Of a DNA stretch of 9,030 bases, positions 1-9,030 are shown piece by piece. The position numbers and the translations under genes were made by a program. Below the pieces are notes generated by a model. That model had not been told where the DNA came from. It was given only the letters and a program-made list of their open reading frames with translations, and ran no database searches. The stretch is from a virus (taxonomy: Duplodnaviria > Heunggongvirae > Uroviricota > Caudoviricetes). Position 1 is the stretch's first letter; the number at the start of each line of letters is the position of its first letter. The stretch lies in IMG/VR virus record IMGVR_UViG_2667527898_000028; one strand, 5' to 3'.

Positions 1-141
1 TTACTGCTTACACTGTAAGAACGCCGCAAACTCCGCTCCCCAGAAGCTCATCCGTATTTCACACAGCGAACCGTGTAGCATCCAGATGATGAGGATTACC
101 GTCACGCAGAACGTGATGGCCGTAAGCGATTTTTGCGACAT
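1..141 (-). CDS. Hok/Gef-family-like type I toxin, small membrane peptide (46 aa)
   Basis: Minus-strand ATG at 141..139 and TAA at 3..1 give MSQKSLTAITFCVTVILIIWMLHGSLCEIRMSFWGAEFAAFLQCKQ. This is a hydrophobic helix followed by SLCEIR and E-x-AAF, the layout I recognise from Hok/Gef/PndA toxins. GGAG sits about 8 nt upstream of the ATG. It is below the ORF-track size cutoff, and the window starts exactly on its stop codon. Family call is from motif memory, not a search. Confidence 0.5.
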   Translation of the reverse strand: MSQKSLTAITFCVTVILIIWMLHGSLCEIRMSFWGAEFAAFLQCKQ

Positions 142-202
142 AGCGCTTGCTCCTTTGTTGGAGAGGCGCTAACCTATCACTTGCTTAAGGTAGATATGTT
201 AG

Positions 203-238
203 GGCCTCGGTTAAACAGAAATGTTTTCCGGGGCCTTT
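203..238. other. Imperfect ~13-bp hairpin with GAAA loop, followed by TTT on the plus strand; candidate regulatory or terminator structure between ogr and the hok-like ORF
   Basis: GGCCTCGG-tt-AAACA-GAAA-TGTTT-t-CCGGGGCC: outer arms 203..210 / 228..235 (one G-U pair), inner arms 213..217 / 222..226. Followed by TTTCC on the plus strand. It lies in the 5' leader of the hok-like ORF, antisense to it. Confidence 0.3.
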
Positions 239-332
239 CCACATCTGGCCTTCGGGTATTCCCTCCGACCATCAGCCGAAAGGCACCCGCGCGTAATCTA
301 TCGCTTTTTTGTTACTCCGGCAATTCTGCCTG

Positions 333-593
333 TTAATTCTGAGGTAAAGGCAAACTCATCTGATTGTTTCCCCTGTGTGAAGCTGGCAGCTCATGCCACG
401 GGATACCTTCTGAAGAGTGAACGCCGGAGGTGTGTTTTGATGTGAATTTATGGAAAGCTTCCAGTGTTGAGAAGCATACGCCGCATTCCAGGTTGTTACA
501 CTGGTAATACTTTTGCCGCACGGTGTTTGAATCATTTTCAGGACGACTGGTGCGGATACGGGCAGATGCGCCACAAAGCGGACAACGGAACAT
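333..593 (-). CDS. ogr: Ogr/Delta-family zinc-finger late-gene transcription activator
   Basis: 86-aa ORF beginning MFRCPLCGASARIRTSR, with a C-x2-C ... C-x4-C cysteine arrangement (C4, C7, C32, C37) typical of P2 Ogr / 186 B / P4 Delta. AGGGAGG sits about 5 nt upstream of the ATG at 593. It lies immediately downstream of D on the same strand, as in P2. Confidence 0.8.
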   Translation of the reverse strand: MFRCPLCGASARIRTSRPENDSNTVRQKYYQCNNLECGVCFSTLEAFHKFTSKHTSGVHSSEGIPWHELPASHRGNNQMSLPLPQN

Positions 594-635
594 AGCGACC
601 TCCCTTAACGTGGTGCTGCTGCTATTCTAAGTTGC

Positions 636-1745
636 TCACTCTGTTTCTGCTATCCATTCCGAGATTTTTGCCTCAAGCTCAAGCTGCGTGGTAAAGCCGC
701 TGTTATCGATGGTGTGCTCGGCTTTTGCAATAATCCAGTCCTGATTATCAATCTCGCTTTTAAATCCTGTTACCGTGCCATGCATTTCGGGGTAGAGTTC
801 TGCACGACCACATGCCAGCGTGATGGAGAATGATGCGGCTCCGCGTTGTAGCTGCTGCCACTTTGCCGCCGCTGCGCGTCTTGCTGCCTGCTCGTTCTGA
901 TAAGTCTTGCGTAACACAAACACATTGCCTTCCGCGCCTTCCATATAATCACCTTCACGGCTGCTGCTTTTCTCCTTTTTGGGTTTTGGCGGTTTGCGGT
1001 GTTTCACGCTGACTTTTTTCTTTTTCCCGTAATTAAGATCAAGCCAGTAAGCGCGTACCCCCGTATACGCTTCGCGGTCAGCAATGCGGAACTGATGGCG
1101 ATCGCCACTGCTGCGCGTGATGGCGAACGATGGCAACGGCTGGCCCTGTGCGTTCACGCCACCGCCTGGCATAATGAATAACAGATTACCGCTTTTTACC
1201 GTGGTGATTGCGCCCAGCATTTCCGCCATGCGCGTAAGGAAGGACATGTCGCTTTCTTCGGTCTGGTCGGCGTGGTCGATTTCGATATCCATCAGCATTT
1301 CGCTGATTTGCGGTTTCAGACCATACCGATGAGCGATGGCGGATACCACACGCTCAACGGTCACATCATGCCAGGACACCTCACGTTTAACGTTAAATTC
1401 ATCCCGAAAATCTGCGCTTCTGGCTGAAACAGTCAGCCTGTCCGGCGGTCCTTCGTGAGCGATTTCATCAACAATGTAAGTGCCTTTTTCTGTCAGCGGT
1501 TCTCCTTTCCAGCCAATGAGAACCGTCAGGCGCGCGCCCCGTGGCGGTAGCTGCAACTGACCATCCGCATCATCCAGCGTGATGGTGAGCTGGTCCGCGT
1601 CAAATCCCCGGTTGTCGGTCAGTGACAGGCTCATCAGGCGCTCTGCCACGCCTGACAGCGTTTTACCCTCCGCGAGAATATCAAAATCCGGCATTTTCAC
1701 GGGGTCTGTGCCCTGACTGAGCAATTGCATGGTGGTATCGGTCAT
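636..1745 (-). CDS. D: P2 gpD-like tail protein (late control gene D family)
   Basis: ORF-track frame 636..1877. The likely true start is the internal Met (MTDTTMQLLSQG...) at about 1745, preceded by GGGAGG; the next Met at 1730 is an alternative. About 369 aa, close to P2 gpD size. Family recognised from overall sequence character and from its position beside ogr. A lysine-rich segment lies at about 960..1030. Confidence 0.85.
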   Translation of the reverse strand: MTDTTMQLLSQGTDPVKMPDFDILAEGKTLSGVAERLMSLSLTDNRGFDADQLTITLDDADGQLQLPPRGARLTVLIGWKGEPLTEKGTYIVDEIAHEGPPDRLTVSARSADFRDEFNVKREVSWHDVTVERVVSAIAHRYGLKPQISEMLMDIEIDHADQTEESDMSFLTRMAEMLGAITTVKSGNLLFIMPGGGVNAQGQPLPSFAITRSSGDRHQFRIADREAYTGVRAYWLDLNYGKKKKVSVKHRKPPKPKKEKSSSREGDYMEGAEGNVFVLRKTYQNEQAARRAAAAKWQQLQRGAASFSITLACGRAELYPEMHGTVTGFKSEIDNQDWIIAKAEHTIDNSGFTTQLELEAKISEWIAETE

Positions 1746-1902
1746 CTGTTCCCTCCCTGTGCGGCATGGTCGCATGTGCGTGCGGAGGGGGTTACTGCTT
1801 TTTGTTGTCGCCGGGTCGGGAGAACGGCGCAGGGGTGAGATTACGCGCGTGGTGGGTGATGATTGTTGCCGAATCATTTAACGGATACAAGGGGCTAAAG
1901 CT
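1746..1902. promoter_or_regulatory. Divergent intergenic region between D (minus) and FI (plus); presumed site of the late promoter for the FI operon
   Basis: 157-nt gap between divergent start codons. I could not find a convincing TGT-N12-ACA Ogr-box or a clear -10 by eye, so this is positional inference only. Confidence 0.3.
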
Positions 1903-3087
1903 ATGAGTGAAACTCGTTTTCATGGTGCCCGTGTTACGGAAAGTACCGACCTGGTAACAGCGATTAACGATGTTGATTCCAGCGTTATCGGTATCGTGGC
2001 AACGGCGGATGATGCGGACGCGAAGCTGTTCCCGCTGAACAAGCCCACACTGCTGACCCGCGTCAATGACGTGCTGGGAAAATGCGGGACAACGGGGACG
2101 CTTTATCGTGCGCTTAAGGCCATCGCAGACCAGGTGAGCACAAAGGTGATCGTCGTTCGCGTGGCTGAACACAAAGAAGAAAACGGAAAGACGCAGGATC
2201 AACTGGTTATCGGTGGTTCTGAATCTGACGGCAGCTATACGGGGATGTATGCGCTGCTTGTTGCAGAGCAGGATGAAAGCATCGGATACCGTCCGCGTAT
2301 TCTGGCCGCGCCGGAGCTGGACACGGAGGCGGTGACAAAATCCCTGTGCGTGATTGCGGGTAAACTGCGCGCGTTTGTGTATGCCACATGTCATGGTTGT
2401 AACACGATGGCTGAGGCGATTACCTACCGCCAGAAATTCAACGAACGTGAGGTGATGCTCTTATGGCCGGACTTCATCGCCTACAACCCGAAAAGTGGCA
2501 AAAACGAAACGTTCCCCGCGCCTGCTTATGCGTGCGGCCTTCGTGCGTACATTGACCATGAGCAGGGCTGGCACAAATCGCTGTCCAACGTTCCGGTTAA
2601 AAATGTGCTGGGGATGTCGAGGCATGTGTTCTGGTCGTTACAGGCCGAAGACAGTGATGCCAACAGCCTCAACAACAAAGAAATCACGACCATTATTCGT
2701 CGTAACGGGTTCCGCTTCTGGGGCAACCGCACACCGGAAACGAACGCCTACATCTTTGAGGTGTATACCCGAACCGCACAGGTGCTGGCTGATTCAATTG
2801 CGGAAGCGCAGTTTGAAACCATCGACAGTCCACTGACACCTGCGAACGTGAAGGATGTTATCAGCGCCATCAGAGCAAAACTGGATTCGCTGGTTACTGT
2901 CGGGAAACTGATTGGTGCGGAGTGCTGGTATGACGTGGTGGATAACAGCACCACGGGTTTACGTCAGGGGCGTGTGCGTATTCGCTACAAATATACGCCC
3001 GTTCCTCCGCTGGAAGACATGGAGCTTTACCAGTCGTTTACTGATGAATTCTTTGGTCCCGCATTTGCGGTGCTGGGAGGTGCCTGA
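1903..3087 (+). CDS. FI: Contractile tail sheath protein (P2 gpFI-like)
   Basis: 394 aa. Motifs remembered from P2 FI: GSYTGMYAL, KLRAFVYA, YRQKFNEREVMLLWPDF, DHEQGWHKSLSNV, RRNGFRFWGNRT, YTRTAQVLAD, YTPVPPLE. AAGGGG sits 8 nt upstream of the ATG. Confidence 0.92.
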   Translation: MSETRFHGARVTESTDLVTAINDVDSSVIGIVATADDADAKLFPLNKPTLLTRVNDVLGKCGTTGTLYRALKAIADQVSTKVIVVRVAEHKEENGKTQDQLVIGGSESDGSYTGMYALLVAEQDESIGYRPRILAAPELDTEAVTKSLCVIAGKLRAFVYATCHGCNTMAEAITYRQKFNEREVMLLWPDFIAYNPKSGKNETFPAPAYACGLRAYIDHEQGWHKSLSNVPVKNVLGMSRHVFWSLQAEDSDANSLNNKEITTIIRRNGFRFWGNRTPETNAYIFEVYTRTAQVLADSIAEAQFETIDSPLTPANVKDVISAIRAKLDSLVTVGKLIGAECWYDVVDNSTTGLRQGRVRIRYKYTPVPPLEDMELYQSFTDEFFGPAFAVLGGA

Positions 3088-3599
3088 TGGCTGTACCAAA
3101 ACATCTTCGCTTTTTTACGTTGTTTGTGGATGGTGAAAACGAAGTGGGTAAAGTGACATCCGTCACGCCACCCAAACTGACGCGCAAAACCGACAGCTAT
3201 CGTGGTGGTGGCATGATGGGGGCGGTAAGTATTGATCTCGGTCTGGACGACTCCGCGCTTGATGCGAGTTTTGTCATGGGGGGAGCTGTTCGTGCGCTGT
3301 TCCTTAAATATGGCGGCACGATTGACGGCACGCTGCTGCGTTTTGCGGGTGAATACTACACCGATGCAGAAAGCGATCTGTATGAAATCGAGATGCGCGG
3401 GCGTCTGACGGAAATTGATATGGGGGAAGCCAAACAGGGCGAAGCCACATCACACACTTACGCTGTCAAAAACACCTACTACAAGCTGATCGTTAACGAT
3501 CGCCCGCTGTGGGAAATCGACCTGTTGAACCACATCTACCGGAAGGACGGCAAGGACATTGTGCCTGACCGTATCCGTTCCGCGCTTGGGCTTGGCTGA
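3087..3599 (+). CDS. FII: Tail tube protein (P2 gpFII-like)
   Basis: 170 aa, beginning MAVPKHLRFF ... PKLTRK ... YRGGGMMGA ... DLGLDD ... RFAG. The start overlaps the FI stop (TGATG) and has a GGGAGG SD, indicating translational coupling. Confidence 0.92.
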   Translation: MAVPKHLRFFTLFVDGENEVGKVTSVTPPKLTRKTDSYRGGGMMGAVSIDLGLDDSALDASFVMGGAVRALFLKYGGTIDGTLLRFAGEYYTDAESDLYEIEMRGRLTEIDMGEAKQGEATSHTYAVKNTYYKLIVNDRPLWEIDLLNHIYRKDGKDIVPDRIRSALGLG

Positions 3600-3612
3600 T
3601 AAGTAATATGCA

Positions 3613-3634
3613 GGCGGCGCAGTGCGTCGCCTTT
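3613..3634 (+). terminator. GC-rich hairpin plus short T-run between FII and E; candidate partial terminator or attenuator
   Basis: GGCGGCGC-AGT-GCGTCGCC (8-bp stem with one G-U pair, 3-nt loop) followed by TTT, then AAGGAG and the E start codon. Confidence 0.3.
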
Positions 3635-3654
3635 GACTGAAAAGGAGACAACTG

Positions 3655-4029
3655 ATGAAAGACATCGATACTGAAACCCGGAATAACACCGTGGCGGATG
3701 ATGTGACGGCAGGTGAGGATATGGCTGTCGAACGTGGCGTAAAACTGACCCGACCAATTGAGCGTGGTGGCGAAAAAATCACGTATGTGGAGATCACCGG
3801 GGCTATTGAGCAGGCTGGATCCCTGCGTGGTCTGTCGCTGTCTGATGTGCTGAATCTGAAAGCGGATACCATGTTTACGCTGTTGCCTCGCGTGACCTCG
3901 CCACGACTGGATGAAGTGATGATTAAAAAAATGTCGTCACGCGATTTTATTCAGTTGTGCGCAGTGGCTGTAAATTTTATGAGCGAGCCAGACTCTGGCG
4001 CGAAGAGCGTGCAGGAGACGGCAGCGTAA
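3655..4029 (+). CDS. E: Tail assembly chaperone (P2 gpE-like)
   Basis: 124-aa ORF directly after FII, with GGAG 7 nt upstream. Position, size and the overlapping -1 frame ORF match the P2 E/E' arrangement. Confidence 0.8.
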   Translation: MKDIDTETRNNTVADDVTAGEDMAVERGVKLTRPIERGGEKITYVEITGAIEQAGSLRGLSLSDVLNLKADTMFTLLPRVTSPRLDEVMIKKMSSRDFIQLCAVAVNFMSEPDSGAKSVQETAA

Positions 4030-4193
4030 TCACCCTGGTGTGCTTTGAGCACATCGAAGATCTGGTGGCGGATATTGCCGCCATTTTTAACTGGTCGCCC
4101 GCCGAAATCTTCATGATGACGCCCGGCGAAGTGGTTAGCTGGCGCGAGCGGGCGGCACTTCGCAGCGGGAATGCAGATAATGAAGACTCTTGA
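3655..4193 (+). CDS. E': E+E' fusion product made by programmed -1 ribosomal frameshifting (predicted)
   Basis: The -1 frame is open from 3927 to the stop at 4191..4193 and overlaps the 3' end of E. The slippery heptamer A_AAT_TTT (3972..3978) is in the correct phase. Predicted fusion is about 179 aa, ending ...NWSPAEIFMMTPGEVVSWRERAALRSGNADNEDS. Confidence 0.55.
3972..3978 (+). other. Candidate -1 frameshift slippery heptamer AAATTTT, with a downstream hairpin
   Basis: Zero-frame codons are GTA AAT TTT ATG, so the heptamer is X_XXY_YYZ in phase. A hairpin GCCAG-ACT-CTGGC (3987..3999), extendable with flanking GCG, starts 5-9 nt downstream. Confidence 0.5.
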
Positions 4194-6987
4194 TATCCGG
4201 GTCGCTTTCAGCGCCGTTGACAGGCTGACCCGGCCTGCCGAAAACGCCCGCCGCCTGATGGGGCAGTTTGGTGACTCCATCCAGCGAACGCAGGGGGCGA
4301 TCAAAAATCTCGAGCGTCAGGCGCGTTCATTTGAGCGCGCCCGTGACGCTGTCAGTAAAGCGGATGCTGGCATCGTGAAAGCACGACGCCAGCTTAACGC
4401 CCTTAATCAGTTACAACGCACGGGTACAGTGCTCAGCGAAAAACAACAAAAGCTGATGCAGCAGTTAAGCACCCGGCTTGAACGCCTGAATGAATCGCGC
4501 ACACGGGAAATTCAGAAAATGCGGGAGCTTGGCGGAGAGCTGAAACGCCACGGCATTTCCCTGACAGGCAGCGATAACACCATCCAGCAGGCCATCAGAC
4601 GCACCGAACAGTACAACAACCAGCTTGAACGCGAACGGCAGGCGCTTGCGCGTGTAACGCGGGCGCGTGAGCGGTATTCGCGCGCGCAGGAAACCGCGGG
4701 AAAACTGAAAACAGGTGGTGCGCTGGCAATTGGTGCTGCAGCGGCTGGCGGCTATGCTGCCGGGCGTTTTTTGCAGCCTGCGATCGGGTTCGGCAAAGAG
4801 ATGTCCCGCGTTCAGGCACTGACGCGAATCGACAAAAACAGCCCGCAGTTTAAGGCGCTGCGTGAGCAGGCGTTAAAACTTGGTTCTGAAACACAGTTTA
4901 CTGCGAGTGATGCCGCCAGTGGGCAGAGCTTTCTGGCAATGGCTGGTTTTACTCCGCAGGCCATTCAGGCCGCATTGCCCGGTGTTCTTAATATGGCGCT
5001 GGCAGGTGGCGTCGAACTCGGCGAGACGGCTGATATAGGCTCCAATATCCTCACACAGTTCAACCTGACAGCCGATCAAATGGACCGGGTTGGCGATACG
5101 CTGACAGCAGCATTCACCCGGACCAATACTGATTTACGCGCGCTGGGCGAAACCATGAAGTATACCGGTCCGGTTGCCGCAAAACTTGGTATCAGTCTTG
5201 AAGAAGCGGCGGCCATGGCCGGGATGCTTGCCAATAATGGTCTTCGCGGAAGCGATGCTGGTACGGCCATGCGCGCAAGTCTGTCCCGCCTTGCATCACC
5301 GCCAAAAGCTGCGGCTGATGCACTGAAAGAGCTGGGGGTGTCAGTTGCTGACGCCAGAGGCAAAATGCGCCCGATGGAGGATGTGCTGCTTGATCTCTAT
5401 AAGGCGACACAAAAATACGGACAGGTGGACCAGGTCTCCTTCTTCAAGGACATCGCCGGAGAAGAGGCGTTCGTTGGTTTGCAGACGCTTGTTGCGGCGG
5501 CTGGTTCAGGAGAACTGCAAAAACTGACCAGAGAATTGCAGGGGGCAAGGGGAGAGGCCGATCGCGTTGCAAAAGTAATGGCCGATAATCTTGATGGAGA
5601 CCTGAAAAATCTCGACAGCGCATGGGAAGGTCTTCGTATTCGCATCAGTGATCTGGTTGACGGTCCGCTGCGTTCTGTCACGCAGTGGCTCACGCGGGTG
5701 CTTGAAAAAATCACCTCGCTGGCGCAGGCCCATCCGGTACTGACGCGCCAGCTACTGATAGCAGGCGGTGCGTTGCTGGCAATGACTGCAACGATTGGCT
5801 CGTTGTCGCTGGTTATTGGGGTGCTTTACGGGAAGCTGGCCACCTTGCGTCTTGGTTTCGACATTCTTACCCGGTCAATGAATGTCATCAGGGTGTTGCC
5901 TGCGCTGTGGGGAATGGTGACGGGTTCTGTTTCTTTGCTGGGTGGTGCTATCGGGGCGCTGTTCAGTCCGGTTGGTCTTATCGTGGCTGCGCTTGCCGGA
6001 GCTGCCGTTCTTATCTGGAAATACTGGGATCCCATCAGGGCATTTTTTGCCGGGGTGTTCAGCGGGATTATGGAAAGGCTGACCCCGTTGCGTGAAACCT
6101 TTGAACGGTTTGGCCCTGTTTTTGACGCAATCGGAAGCGGGATCAGCCTGGTGTTTAACTGGTTTAAATCGCTGTTGTCACCGATGGAGTCCAGCAAGGA
6201 AACGCTGGATAAATGCACCAGTGCTGGCGAGATATTCGGTAACGTTCTTGGCGGTGCGTTACAACTTGTTCTGACGCCTGCAAAAATGCTACTGGATACG
6301 CTGGCGTGGATACTTGAAAAACTTGGCGTCCTTCCGGATGAAGCGGAAAGGGCGCGCAAGAAAATCGAAGACGCACAGCGTGCGGCCATTCTTCAGGACA
6401 AGGTTGCCTTGCTTCAGGGGGACCTGGCGAAAATCAATCCGCCGAAGCCTGTGGAAAATGGCAATGGCACCGGAGGTGATAAACCCAAAGACAACAAACC
6501 GCTCACAGACAGCAATACCGGTACGCTACGCAGACTCAGCAAAATTGCTGATAACACAGGTAAGCTGGTTGATGAGACGAAAAAACGCATTGGCCCCGGC
6601 GATATTGTCTTTAAGAATCTGCCCCGCGCACTTGCTGTTCGTGGGGAGTGGCAGGAGCGGAAGATTGCGCAGGTCAGTAAGCCTGCTTCCGCAATCAACA
6701 TCACACCCGTGGTCCCGACTCCTCTGCCTCTGGCGCTGGTCCCTGTTGTTGCGGCCAGCTCCCGCCCGGTGGCGGAGGCCATACGATCGCCAGTGGCATC
6801 AGTTCCTGCAACTTCCCGTAACCGGGAGCCTGTTGTCTCCGGATTTGGCGGTGAAATTCATGTTCATCTGCATAACGTTGTTACGCAGAATCCCCGCGAA
6901 CTGGCGAAACTGGTCGGTGAAATGGTCAGGGCAGAATTGGAACGACGCGACCGTGCCGGACGTGGCAGTTTTTACGATAAAGATTGA
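4171..6987 (+). CDS. T: Tail tape measure protein (P2 gpT-like)
   Basis: 938 aa. N-terminal charged and predicted coiled-coil region, central tape-measure core (AMAGFTPQAIQAALPGVLNMALAGG ... MKYTGPVAAKLGISLEEAAAMAGMLANNGLRGSDAGTAMRASLSRL), hydrophobic helices at about aa 520-620, and a Pro/Lys-rich C-terminus. An alternative start is ATG 4180. The start overlaps the end of the E' frame. Confidence 0.9.
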   Translation: MQIMKTLDIRVAFSAVDRLTRPAENARRLMGQFGDSIQRTQGAIKNLERQARSFERARDAVSKADAGIVKARRQLNALNQLQRTGTVLSEKQQKLMQQLSTRLERLNESRTREIQKMRELGGELKRHGISLTGSDNTIQQAIRRTEQYNNQLERERQALARVTRARERYSRAQETAGKLKTGGALAIGAAAAGGYAAGRFLQPAIGFGKEMSRVQALTRIDKNSPQFKALREQALKLGSETQFTASDAASGQSFLAMAGFTPQAIQAALPGVLNMALAGGVELGETADIGSNILTQFNLTADQMDRVGDTLTAAFTRTNTDLRALGETMKYTGPVAAKLGISLEEAAAMAGMLANNGLRGSDAGTAMRASLSRLASPPKAAADALKELGVSVADARGKMRPMEDVLLDLYKATQKYGQVDQVSFFKDIAGEEAFVGLQTLVAAAGSGELQKLTRELQGARGEADRVAKVMADNLDGDLKNLDSAWEGLRIRISDLVDGPLRSVTQWLTRVLEKITSLAQAHPVLTRQLLIAGGALLAMTATIGSLSLVIGVLYGKLATLRLGFDILTRSMNVIRVLPALWGMVTGSVSLLGGAIGALFSPVGLIVAALAGAAVLIWKYWDPIRAFFAGVFSGIMERLTPLRETFERFGPVFDAIGSGISLVFNWFKSLLSPMESSKETLDKCTSAGEIFGNVLGGALQLVLTPAKMLLDTLAWILEKLGVLPDEAERARKKIEDAQRAAILQDKVALLQGDLAKINPPKPVENGNGTGGDKPKDNKPLTDSNTGTLRRLSKIADNTGKLVDETKKRIGPGDIVFKNLPRALAVRGEWQERKIAQVSKPASAINITPVVPTPLPLALVPVVAASSRPVAEAIRSPVASVPATSRNREPVVSGFGGEIHVHLHNVVTQNPRELAKLVGEMVRAELERRDRAGRGSFYDKD

Positions 6988-6999
6988 GGAGTCATGGCC

Positions 7000-7488
7000 A
7001 TGATGATGATCTACGGCATGTTTGTTTTTGAGCTGCGCACATTGCCGCATCAGCAGTTACAGCAAAACAAAAGCTGGCGGTATGTGAAAAATGAACGCGT
7101 TAACCGTTCAGCAAGCTGGCAGTATATCGGCGCAGGTGATGATCGCATCGTGCTTTCCGGCGTGCTTTATCCTGAAATTACAGGTGGCGAAGTGTCGCTT
7201 TCATTGCTGACCACGCAGGCATATACAGGACGGCCCTGGCCTCTGATTGATGGTGTCGGGCAGATTTACGGCATGTATGTACTGACTGAAACGAATACGA
7301 CCCGTTCCGAGTTTGATCGCTACGGTAAGGCGAAAAAGATAGAATTTTCACTGACTCTTGAACGCTGTGATGAGGATTTGCGGGAGCGCCTGCAATCCTC
7401 ATCGTTCAGCGATATGTTGTCCGGCTTCAAAGATAAGGTGACATCATCCCTTAATAGCGCGGCCAGCTCAGTTAAGGGGCTGCTCTGA
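7000..7488 (+). CDS. U: Tail protein gpU-like
   Basis: ORF-track frame 6994..7488. GGAG at 6988..6991 is too close to ATG 6994 but about 8 nt from ATG 7000 (MMMIYGMFVFEL...). Size and position after T match P2 gpU. Confidence 0.85.
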   Translation: MMMIYGMFVFELRTLPHQQLQQNKSWRYVKNERVNRSASWQYIGAGDDRIVLSGVLYPEITGGEVSLSLLTTQAYTGRPWPLIDGVGQIYGMYVLTETNTTRSEFDRYGKAKKIEFSLTLERCDEDLRERLQSSSFSDMLSGFKDKVTSSLNSAASSVKGLL

Positions 7489-7564
7489 TTTAACGTATGT
7501 CGCCAATTTCCTGATGAAGGTGACTGGCGACTTGCTGTTGTATGTCCTTCTCAGAAAATTGTTT

Positions 7565-7593
7565 TTGAATAATAAACAACAGGATTTTATAAT
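7565..7593 (+). promoter_or_regulatory. Near-consensus sigma70 promoter for the acetyltransferase cargo gene
   Basis: TTGAAT (7565..7570), 17-nt spacer, TATAAT (7588..7593), in an AT-rich context about 50 nt upstream of the RBS. Confidence 0.45.
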
Positions 7594-7644
7594 CTCTTAA
7601 CCTTATAACATGTGTGGTCTGAAATAATAATTAAGGAGATTATC

Positions 7645-8217
7645 GTGCTGTCTTACCTAATGGCAATTCACTTTGTTTTATTTGGGAACTCTACTAATTT
7701 AAAAAACTTCTGGAAACATGAAGTAATTCGGCGGAAACGTATGGATATCTGGAGGCTTTTAAGAGAGAAAAAGCAGCGTAACAGGAATTTCCTTTTCTGG
7801 TGGCGGTTGGCTAACGAAATGTATATTAATGGTAATAAATTACATAAGAAAGCTGCTAAAAAGTTAAACAATAAAATAATTAACAATTTTGGTTGCGAGA
7901 TTGGACTGGGCGCAAAAATTGGAAAAGGGCTAACAATTCCCCATCACGCTGGAATTGTTGTTCATTTTGCTGTTGATGCTGGTGAAAATCTGGTGTTACG
8001 ACAGAATACTACTATTGGACAGATAGATGGTGACATACCTGGTTCAAGAGTAAAAATTGGTAGTAACGTTGATATCGGAGCTAATTGTTGCATCATTGGA
8101 TTATCTCGTAAAATTGGGGATAATGTAAAAATAGGCGCAATGTCTTTTATAAATAAAGATATACCATCGAACTGCACATATATAACTAAAAAGAACGGTG
8201 TTGTTTTGTATAAATAG
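7645..8217 (+). CDS. Hexapeptide-repeat (left-handed beta-helix) O-acetyltransferase, WcaB / serine-acetyltransferase-like
   Basis: The ORF-track frame starts at GTG 7612. GTG 7645 is preferred because AAGGAG sits 6 nt upstream; ATG 7660 is an alternative. The C-terminal half carries imperfect hexapeptide repeats (GAKIGKGLTIPHHAGIVV, TTIGQIDGDIPGSRVKIGSNVDIGANCCIIG, IGDNVKIGAMSFI) after a basic helical N-terminal part, as in WcaB/CysE-type acetyltransferases. Codon usage is strongly AT-rich compared with the tail genes. Confidence 0.85.
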   Translation: MLSYLMAIHFVLFGNSTNLKNFWKHEVIRRKRMDIWRLLREKKQRNRNFLFWWRLANEMYINGNKLHKKAAKKLNNKIINNFGCEIGLGAKIGKGLTIPHHAGIVVHFAVDAGENLVLRQNTTIGQIDGDIPGSRVKIGSNVDIGANCCIIGLSRKIGDNVKIGAMSFINKDIPSNCTYITKKNGVVLYK

Positions 8218-8227
8218 AGCACATAAA

Positions 8228-8262
8228 GCCATCGATATTTCTATCGATGGCTTTTTCTTTTT
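8228..8262. terminator. Rho-independent terminator between convergent genes, probably bidirectional
   Basis: Perfect 10-bp stem GCCATCGATA / TATCGATGGC with TTTC loop, followed by TTTTTCTTTTT on the plus strand. It sits between the acetyltransferase stop (8217) and the tfa stop (8261..8263). Confidence 0.75.
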
Positions 8263-8754
8263 ATTGTGGGGCGACTGGCCACTCAATATCTGCTGCTACT
8301 GTTGTATCAACACGATGCAACAATACTCGATATGTCTTCCATGCAGCCAGTAACGATGTCTCTTCCTCCGTCGCAATATCTAAATCTATAGCATCCTGAA
8401 GTGGTGCAATATGCTCACTGGCTACCTGCATCAGGCTGTTTTTTGTTTCTTCCGCCTCCCTTATCCGAAATAGTTTTTCTGCTTCTGCATCTTTCACCCA
8501 GGATGTGCCGTTCCACTTCTGATACTCTCCATACGGCGACAACCAGGTAACATTTTCCGGTAACGGACCGAGTTCAGAAATAAATAACGAGTCCCCTGAT
8601 GCCACGTCATAAACCGTTTTACCCCGATGGTCTTCAACGAGATGCCACGATGCCTCATCACTGTTGAAAACAACCACGAAGCCAGCCGGAATATCTGGGC
8701 AATATCAGTACTGTTTGCAGGCAAACCTGTATGAAGTGGAATGGCACAAGAGAC
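8261..8754 (-). pseudogene. Tail fibre assembly protein (Tfa/gpG family), frameshifted and 5'-truncated
   Basis: The C-terminal part (ORF 8261..8677) ends ...[26 protein letters not shown], the conserved Tfa C-terminus. Upstream, the homology continues in another frame (ORF 8494..8724, ...[12 protein letters not shown]) and switches frame at about 8696..8700, in a C-run, to ...[18 protein letters not shown]. The open frame ends at a stop at 8755..8757, so the usual N-terminal 30-40 aa are absent. Confidence 0.7.
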
Positions 8755-9030
8755 TTACAAAAGAATCAGGCAAAACGCCTGATTGATGAGAGCCCCGAAC
8801 TACTGAAATCTGTCGTCAAATTTGCGCTGGTAACTGTTCTGAGAAAGTCGAACATCATAAATCTGGAGTGGCAACAGATTGACATGCAGCGACAAGTTGC
8901 CAGGGTGAATCCAGAAGATAGCAAATCAAACCGCGCCATTGGTGTGGCGCTGAACGATACCGCCTCTAAAGTGTTGCGTGATCAAACAGGCAAGCATCAC
9001 AAATGTGGGTGTACATACCAGGGCGGCTAA
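8731..9030 (+). pseudogene. Tyrosine-integrase fragment (start of the catalytic domain only)
   Basis: 99-aa ORF containing [47 protein letters not shown], the Arg-box / L-x-W-x-x-I-D region at the start of phage integrase catalytic domains. It lacks the N-terminal DNA-binding part and the downstream H-x-x-R ... Y catalytic residues, and ends ...[12 protein letters not shown] at a stop at the window edge. Confidence 0.6.

Follow-up and report, generated by a model that had tools for sequence, protein, structure and literature searches.

The stretch of DNA analysed here, 9,030 nucleotides of the IMG/VR virus record IMGVR_UViG_2667527898_000028 (hereafter the window), carries an intact P2-type contractile tail gene cluster next to a broken tail-fibre-assembly gene (tfa) and a broken integrase gene. 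The initial annotation had taken this uneven decay as a possible sign of a domesticated, tailocin-like tail module. We found instead that the window is composed of two different prophages. The region spanning 1–8671 is, by nucleotide identity and gene order, the leuZ-proximal (attR) arm of an ordinary, recently active temperate P88-like prophage (Xuanwuvirus, Peduoviridae, P2 family), and the region spanning 8672–9030 belongs to the DLP12 remnant at argU (tfa′ and int′), a separate and far older element. Both meet inside an 81-bp stretch that is identical in both tfa genes, and this joint, judged from contig sequence, is probably an assembly or gap-closing mis-join. Whether the joint is false or real, the intact state of the tail genes reflects their membership of a young, functional-type prophage and not selection on a headless module.

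The window was an exact piece of contig CCCF01000075.1 (17,989 bp) of the assembly GCA_000941435.1; no relevant literature was found under the assembly or whole-genome shotgun accession. The gene order on this contig is glyW-cysT-leuZ, hok to tfa′, int′, argU, folD, ybcJ, ybcI, cysS, ppiB, lpxH, purE and purK. The leuZ-cysT-glyW tRNA genes adjoin hok, as for a P88-like prophage integrated at leuZ, and the arm is then followed by int′, argU and folD in place of the remainder of a complete prophage. No baseplate, fibre or head gene was found in the window, as had been claimed earlier, or across the whole source contig. The region spanning 1–7494 showed 93–95.5% nucleotide identity and the same gene order with the phages P88, P884B11 (Xuanwuvirus), 500465-2 and Shae_phiSM, and the region spanning 1–8743 was 98.7–98.9% identical to prophages in Escherichia coli (E. 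coli) chromosomes. At least 80% of the window was present in one place in 1,332 of 5,426 complete E. coli genomes, and a 24-kb stretch from hok to the portal gene was found at 80% or more in one piece in 406 complete genomes. In E. coli 55989, where identity is 98.7% across 8.7 kb, the prophage is complete and lies beside tRNA-Leu (leuZ), and beyond its 192-aa tfa lie H, I, J, W and V and the genes for tail completion, lysis, capsid, terminase and portal.

Both P88 and 55989 have the order of the window, with hok, ogr and D on the minus strand, then FI, FII, E, E′, T and U on the plus strand and then tfa on the minus strand. Because D and ogr are divergent from FI in P88 too, this arrangement is the normal order of the group and not a rearrangement. 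Two differences were seen. The place after U is taken by a DNA invertase and an invertible fibre segment in P88 and by an acetyltransferase moron in the window and 55989; and from tfa codon ~55 outward, the source contig has DLP12/argU sequence, unlike P88 and 55989. The P2 tail operon itself runs FI-FII-E-E+E′-T-U-D with ogr, and the work on it reportedly includes that of Christie et al. in 2002. The gene set and Pfam families of the window are those of P2, including a putative chaperone pair made by −1 frameshifting right before the tape-measure gene, but in P2 the D and ogr genes come after U, on its strand, whereas both are upstream of FI and on the opposite strand in the window.

At the right end of the window, the tfa remnant (8261–8741, minus strand; PF02413) is P88-type in its 3′ part and DLP12-type in its 5′ part and is cut at ~8741. 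Its open frame (8261–8677) is a stub of 138 codons versus 192 aa at full length. Beyond it lies a C-terminal fragment of the DLP12 integrase (8731–9030, plus strand; PF00589), 99 aa of the catalytic domain, with argU just outside the window. The earlier statement that both genes are broken is thus correct, and neither the tfa stub nor the integrase piece has a ribosome-binding site. The region spanning 8476–9030 matched a pair of tfa pseudogene and integrase fragment in 1,119 complete genomes, where a methyltransferase gene and ompT are on one side and tRNA-Arg and folD on the other. The tRNA-Arg(UCU) gene is present on the source contig, which gives the order tfa′-int′-tRNA-Arg-folD of the DLP12 remnant. 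The gene context is observed, and the element at argU is presumably the one named DLP12 on the K-12 map. The region from 8591 to 9030 and the next 6 kb were 100% identical to other assemblies of the same lineage and 96–99% identical to many further genomes; the usual left neighbours are the methyltransferase gene and ompT, whereas here the P88-like arm takes their place. As tfa′ and int′ match the DLP12 remnant at argU, the decayed genes are not leftovers of the P88-like phage.

A three-way alignment located the switch from P88-type to DLP12-type sequence to 8591–8671, the 81 bp shared without a mismatch by the P88-like tfa and the tfa remnant of DLP12 and hence the interval of a crossover or mis-join. 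The hybrid 138-aa tfa was found on 1 contig among ~15 billion protein sequences, and the joint was present in none of the 5,426 complete E. coli genomes. The assembly GCA_000936105.1, which is apparently of the same clone as the source isolate (hereafter the clone-mate), contains both halves separately. Its prophage contig (L009) showed 0 differences from the source contig in 10,062 bp, from the left end to window position 8671, and its argU contig (L020) was identical to the source contig for 6,440 bp from window position 8591. The arm of the clone-mate continues into tfa, H, I, J, W, V, S, R and lysis genes, and its DLP12 remnant is separate and normal. Thus, the window equals the prophage contig of the clone-mate on the left and its argU contig on the right, spliced within the 81-bp repeat. 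In addition, among the matches listed for a T protein identical to that of the window (935 aa), nine places out of nine had all fibre and baseplate genes. The order there is pgsA, tRNA genes, tail arm, full-length tfa and then H, I, J, W, V, S and R, with lysis genes following in most of them. For the inspection of the flanks that the initial annotation had proposed, baseplate and fibre genes are absent on the source contig and present beside the identical arm in the apparent clone-mate.

The position of the two loci argues for a mis-join. Relative to the contig, the argU locus of 55989 (~592 kb) and its leuZ prophage (~2,168 kb) have the same orientation. As the loci are direct, a single exchange yielding this joint would delete ~1.58 Mb of core chromosome, which we infer would be lethal, and the simplest reading is therefore that a short-read assembler, or a gap-closing step, took the wrong path through the 81-bp tfa repeat. 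The isolate would then have its leuZ prophage complete and an ordinary DLP12 remnant beside argU, as its apparent clone-mate does. A single-step real deletion and a tandem duplication were both excluded by the orientation of the loci. The predicted reciprocal recombinant tfa (114 aa) was also searched for and occurred on two short metagenome scaffolds, beside a methyltransferase gene of the DLP12 type. This neighbour marks it as an ordinary DLP12-type tfa pseudogene, which is uninformative on a reciprocal joint.

Several observations weigh against a mis-join and leave some room for a real joint, which we consider possible but clearly the less likely reading. It would have arisen very recently, when the tfa of the P88-like prophage recombined with the tfa remnant of DLP12 in a RecA-type exchange, within a multi-step chromosomal rearrangement. 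Identity over the 81 bp of the crossover interval is clean and the flanks match perfectly on both sides, 81 bp of identity suffices for RecA-dependent recombination, and recombination between prophages is a well-known origin of E. coli rearrangements (compare PMC2669165). The assembly GCA_000936105.1, which holds both halves, resolved the same repeat correctly in both contexts, so the repeat is not intrinsically unresolvable. Furthermore, the left end of the source contig lies 80 nt upstream of glyW, a point through which nine related assemblies have continuous contigs. This end could mark a private insertion sequence (IS) insertion together with a real multi-step rearrangement, and such an insertion fits a two-step path in which an IS-mediated inversion placed the tfa copies in inverted orientation and a second, tfa-tfa inversion followed. 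The prophage would then be split, its FI–U/D/ogr/hok arm lying at argU and its genes for fibres, baseplate, head and early functions elsewhere in the genome, and the split would be a neutral accident and not a retained module. The joint was judged from this contig and from other assemblies. On the other side, with the standard gene order the exchange amounts to a ~1.5-Mb deletion and at least two large private events are needed; the joint is unique to one draft contig; and no reciprocal joint was found, the predicted reciprocal protein being the pseudogene described above. The end of the contig itself (source contig 17909–17989, between pgsA and glyW) could be a private IS insertion or a plain coverage gap, and it bears on whether the isolate has real rearrangements. 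A very recent deletion, which the initial annotation had kept as its fallback, stands only if the contig is true to the chromosome, and this is doubtful for a joint that equals a ~1.5-Mb deletion.

The intactness of the tail genes was confirmed in detail. The open reading frame (ORF) map and the Pfam and PHROG searches of the window agreed on the gene layout. The FI gene for the contractile tail sheath (1903–3087, plus strand; 394 aa; PF04984, PF22671 and PF17482; 97.5% identical to P88) is followed by FII for the tail tube (3087–3599, plus strand; 170 aa; PF04985, E 4e-45), E for the tail assembly chaperone (3655–4029, plus strand; 124 aa; phrog_103, E 1e-36; a weak PF10109 match; 100% identical to 55989), the E′ segment in the −1 frame relative to E (3978–4193, plus strand; PF06528 Phage_P2_GpE, E 2e-12), T for the tape measure (4180–6987, plus strand; 935 aa; PF10145, E 1.6e-56) and U for a tail protein (7000–7488, plus strand; 162 aa; PF06995, E 3e-39; alternative start at 6994). 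On the minus strand, D (636–1745; 369 aa; PF05954; phrog_52, E 1e-164) encodes an intact tail/baseplate hub protein, 98.9% identical to P88 gp51, and the 413-aa version of D in the ORF map is the same frame prolonged upstream to an earlier ATG. All seven frames are uninterrupted as had been claimed, and the tail proteins have the lengths of their P88 and 55989 homologues with 94–100% amino acid identity, except for E, which is 73% identical to that of P88. The span 333–7488 had been called a tail module as a whole; this holds for the tail genes, but its first part (333–593, minus strand) is ogr, the zinc-finger activator of P2-type late genes (86 aa; PF04606, E 5e-14; 86 of 86 residues the same as in 55989), and not a tail gene.

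The translation signals were also as described in the initial annotation. Shine-Dalgarno-like sequences are present upstream of D, FI, FII, E and U, the FI stop and the FII start share 1 nt, and the T start lies 14 nt within E′. The slippery heptamer A AAT TTT (3972–3978, plus strand), in phase with E, is a candidate −1 frameshift site for E+E′ and is conserved in phase in P88, which is consistent with a preserved frameshift signal. The E′ frame is open from 3927, and the predicted E+E′ fusion is 179 aa. In P88, the site reads GTA AAT TTT TTG (4697–4708 of its locus), where A AAT TTT overlaps with the P2-type heptamer T TTT TTG, whereas the window reads GTA AAT TTT ATG (3970–3981); with T TTT ATG in place of the P2-type heptamer, A AAT TTT is the sole one remaining. 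The divergent intergenic region between D and FI (1746–1902) presumably contains the late promoters, given its position; the strict P2-type late-promoter dyad TGT-N12-ACA was found in none of the regions around D/FI, E and the U/moron intergenic region. The sheath and tube, the predicted E and E+E′ arrangement, T, U, D and ogr together make up a P2-family tail cluster. As in other members of the family, Ogr would turn on the late operons of the phage, E and E+E′ would act as chaperones for the tape measure T, and the FII tube and FI sheath would polymerise on a baseplate containing D, the remaining baseplate proteins (V, W, J, I, H, R and S) being supplied from elsewhere in the prophage. The cluster is a P2-family tail arm of textbook type, from a prophage common in E. 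coli, its neighbours are the well-known DLP12 remnant, and neither is new. In the RefSeq annotation of 55989, D (20636–21745, minus strand) is given as a 266-aa "VgrG/Pvc8 family" protein and a small pseudogene, and it is likewise short in some drafts. Decay of D in 55989 was rejected, since the full frame of 369 codons is open and the short form is a choice of annotated start.

These intact frames with their translation signals are what speaks for a domesticated module, in which the host would keep the sheath, tube, tape measure, U and D as a component of a tailocin-like or contractile injection system after the loss of other phage genes, and arms of the same prophage do persist without head or baseplate genes in other lineages. 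We nevertheless consider such domestication highly improbable. With 0 differences from an apparent clone-mate that carries the whole prophage, neither differential decay nor selection has had time to act, and the broken genes that gave the impression of uneven decay belong to the DLP12 remnant. The tube and sheath of P2, T4 and R-type pyocins cannot nucleate without a baseplate and spike, and the source contig is without baseplate, spike, fibre, tail-completion and lysis genes. The R-type tailocins (e.g. R2 pyocin; the P2-like tailocins of Dickeya, PMC10719855) have homologues of the P2-type sheath, tube, chaperone, tape-measure, U and D proteins, but their loci in addition code for the baseplate, spike and fibres, for tail completion, for a lysis cassette and for regulators, which does not hold here. 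Fibres, tail-completion proteins and lysis genes are carried by tailocin loci (compare PMC10719855 and PMC9205054). Furthermore, in tailocins the headless cluster is conserved across a lineage, whereas here the joint exists on one contig, and the lineage-wide conservation of a headless cluster under purifying selection was not seen.

The ratio of nonsynonymous to synonymous substitution rates (dN/dS), proposed earlier as a check, was 0.04–0.2 against P88 and 0.04–0.6 against 55989, with very few changes in the latter. We rejected it as a test of domestication, since the values come from comparison with complete phages and the arm does not differ from the apparent clone-mate; the low values are silent on the remnant state, and those against P88 reflect the history of the genes in whole phages. 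A reading of D as part of an extracellular contractile injection system (eCIS), a Photorhabdus virulence cassette (PVC) or a type VI secretion system (T6SS) was also rejected, as the VgrG-related matches were weak and far under the cut-off. Gene intactness is uninformative on selection while a clone-mate retains the whole phage. The pattern of intact genes beside broken ones on a single draft contig can come from one joint between unrelated prophages that share a short identical tfa stretch, and conserved tfa segments are possible cross-wiring points for both short-read contigs and real chromosomes.

Genuine remnants of this prophage family decay in these same genes, which also argues against domestication. 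In the E. coli O157:H7 strain Z1768, the leuZ prophage (9107–18603) has a D gene interrupted by IS30 and a frameshifted T, and an IS3-family element stands in place of the fibre-to-head region, so that the fibre, baseplate, lysis and head genes are lost. This prophage is presumably Sp13 / CP-933T. Like the window, it keeps FI-FII-E-E′-T-U-acetyltransferase-tfa at leuZ; it differs in that the loss is bounded by the IS3-family element, the early/replication region is kept and the lesions are visible, whereas the arm in the window is free of lesions and abuts argU DNA. Sp13 has been described as defective and without most morphogenetic genes, and it was reported to excise and replicate upon mitomycin C treatment (PMC2669165). 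In a second type of remnant (MarR-deletion-tfa′), found on 25 contigs, the integrase and early genes are joined to tfa codon ~55 and are followed by the moron and the whole tail arm (loci L025–L032; e.g. L025 9346–9962 and L028 7729–7731). Several members have a further 414-bp deletion (equivalent to window 1614–2027), which removes the D/FI intergenic region together with the beginnings of both genes. Among the 5,426 complete E. coli genomes, none has the junction of the early genes with tfa.

The arm survives in at least two independent deletion derivatives. An arm kept for selfish or useful cargo, the hok/sok addiction system and the acetyltransferase moron, with deletions of the arm counter-selected and the tail genes hitch-hiking, appears quite unlikely to us. 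A hok gene and a sub-threshold sok-like match are present at 1–288, and the moron is equipped with a promoter-like site and a terminator of its own. Retention of this kind, however, leaves the joint in the window unexplained, as the joint has no age; hok/sok protects itself alone, and internal deletions and IS insertions do hit the tail genes; and arms adjacent to att sites may commonly be the last to vanish for reasons of position alone. Hardly more probable, and likewise quite unlikely, is a general preferential retention of the hok-ogr-D-FI…U-acetyltransferase arm in Sp13, in the MarR-deletion-tfa′ type and, if the contig is real, in this isolate, where the joint would be a real ectopic exchange between prophages 1.5 Mb apart. 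Were this true, the reasons for retention might be hok/sok addiction, a benefit from the moron, or the supply of tail proteins in trans for P2/P4-type elements.

Among the other genes of the phage arm, the hok/gef-family toxin gene (1–141, minus strand; PF01848; phrog_251 MokW-like host killing, E 2.5e-23) is located at the attR (leuZ) end of the prophage, and its product is the same as P88 gp52 and the 55989 protein in 46 of 46 residues. A candidate sok/mok regulatory region of the hok locus (131–288, minus strand) matched Rfam RF01794 (sok) below threshold (47.9 bits versus a gathering score of 59; E 1.4e-9). The location of hok and the sub-threshold sok-like match at the far end of the prophage, beside leuZ, could bias which arm outlasts deletions. 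The moron (7565–8254, plus strand) has a low GC content (~35%) and contains the coding sequence of a hexapeptide-repeat acetyltransferase (7645–8217), whose product has a Hexapep match and is EpsC/CysE/WcaB-like, with every match far under the family cut-offs. It begins with a promoter-like sigma-70-type site, TTGAAT-17-TATAAT (7565–7593), and ends with a strong terminator made of a 13-bp hairpin and a T run (8225–8254). The acetyltransferase may modify surface polysaccharide. Its gene also adjoins tfa in the unrelated phages JL22 and Ro157c2YLVW and was found on plasmids.

Some minor features of the two ends were noticed in addition. An Rfam IS009 (RF02111) match (8298–8496, minus strand; 177 bits versus a gathering score of 117) lies wholly within the tfa coding sequence, and this "RNA family" may be merely a conserved segment of prophage tfa genes. 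On the argU side, folD is directly beside argU in this lineage (L003 12890–14103 and source contig 6020–7233), and 55989 has an sfm/fim-like fimbrial operon and fimZ between the two (L005 4670–12611). On the leuZ side, an ORF of 93 aa between leuZ and hok (source contig 16786–17067; 55989 locus 19531–19812), without a counterpart in P88, encodes a signal-peptide-like N-terminus and several cysteines and is probably another moron.

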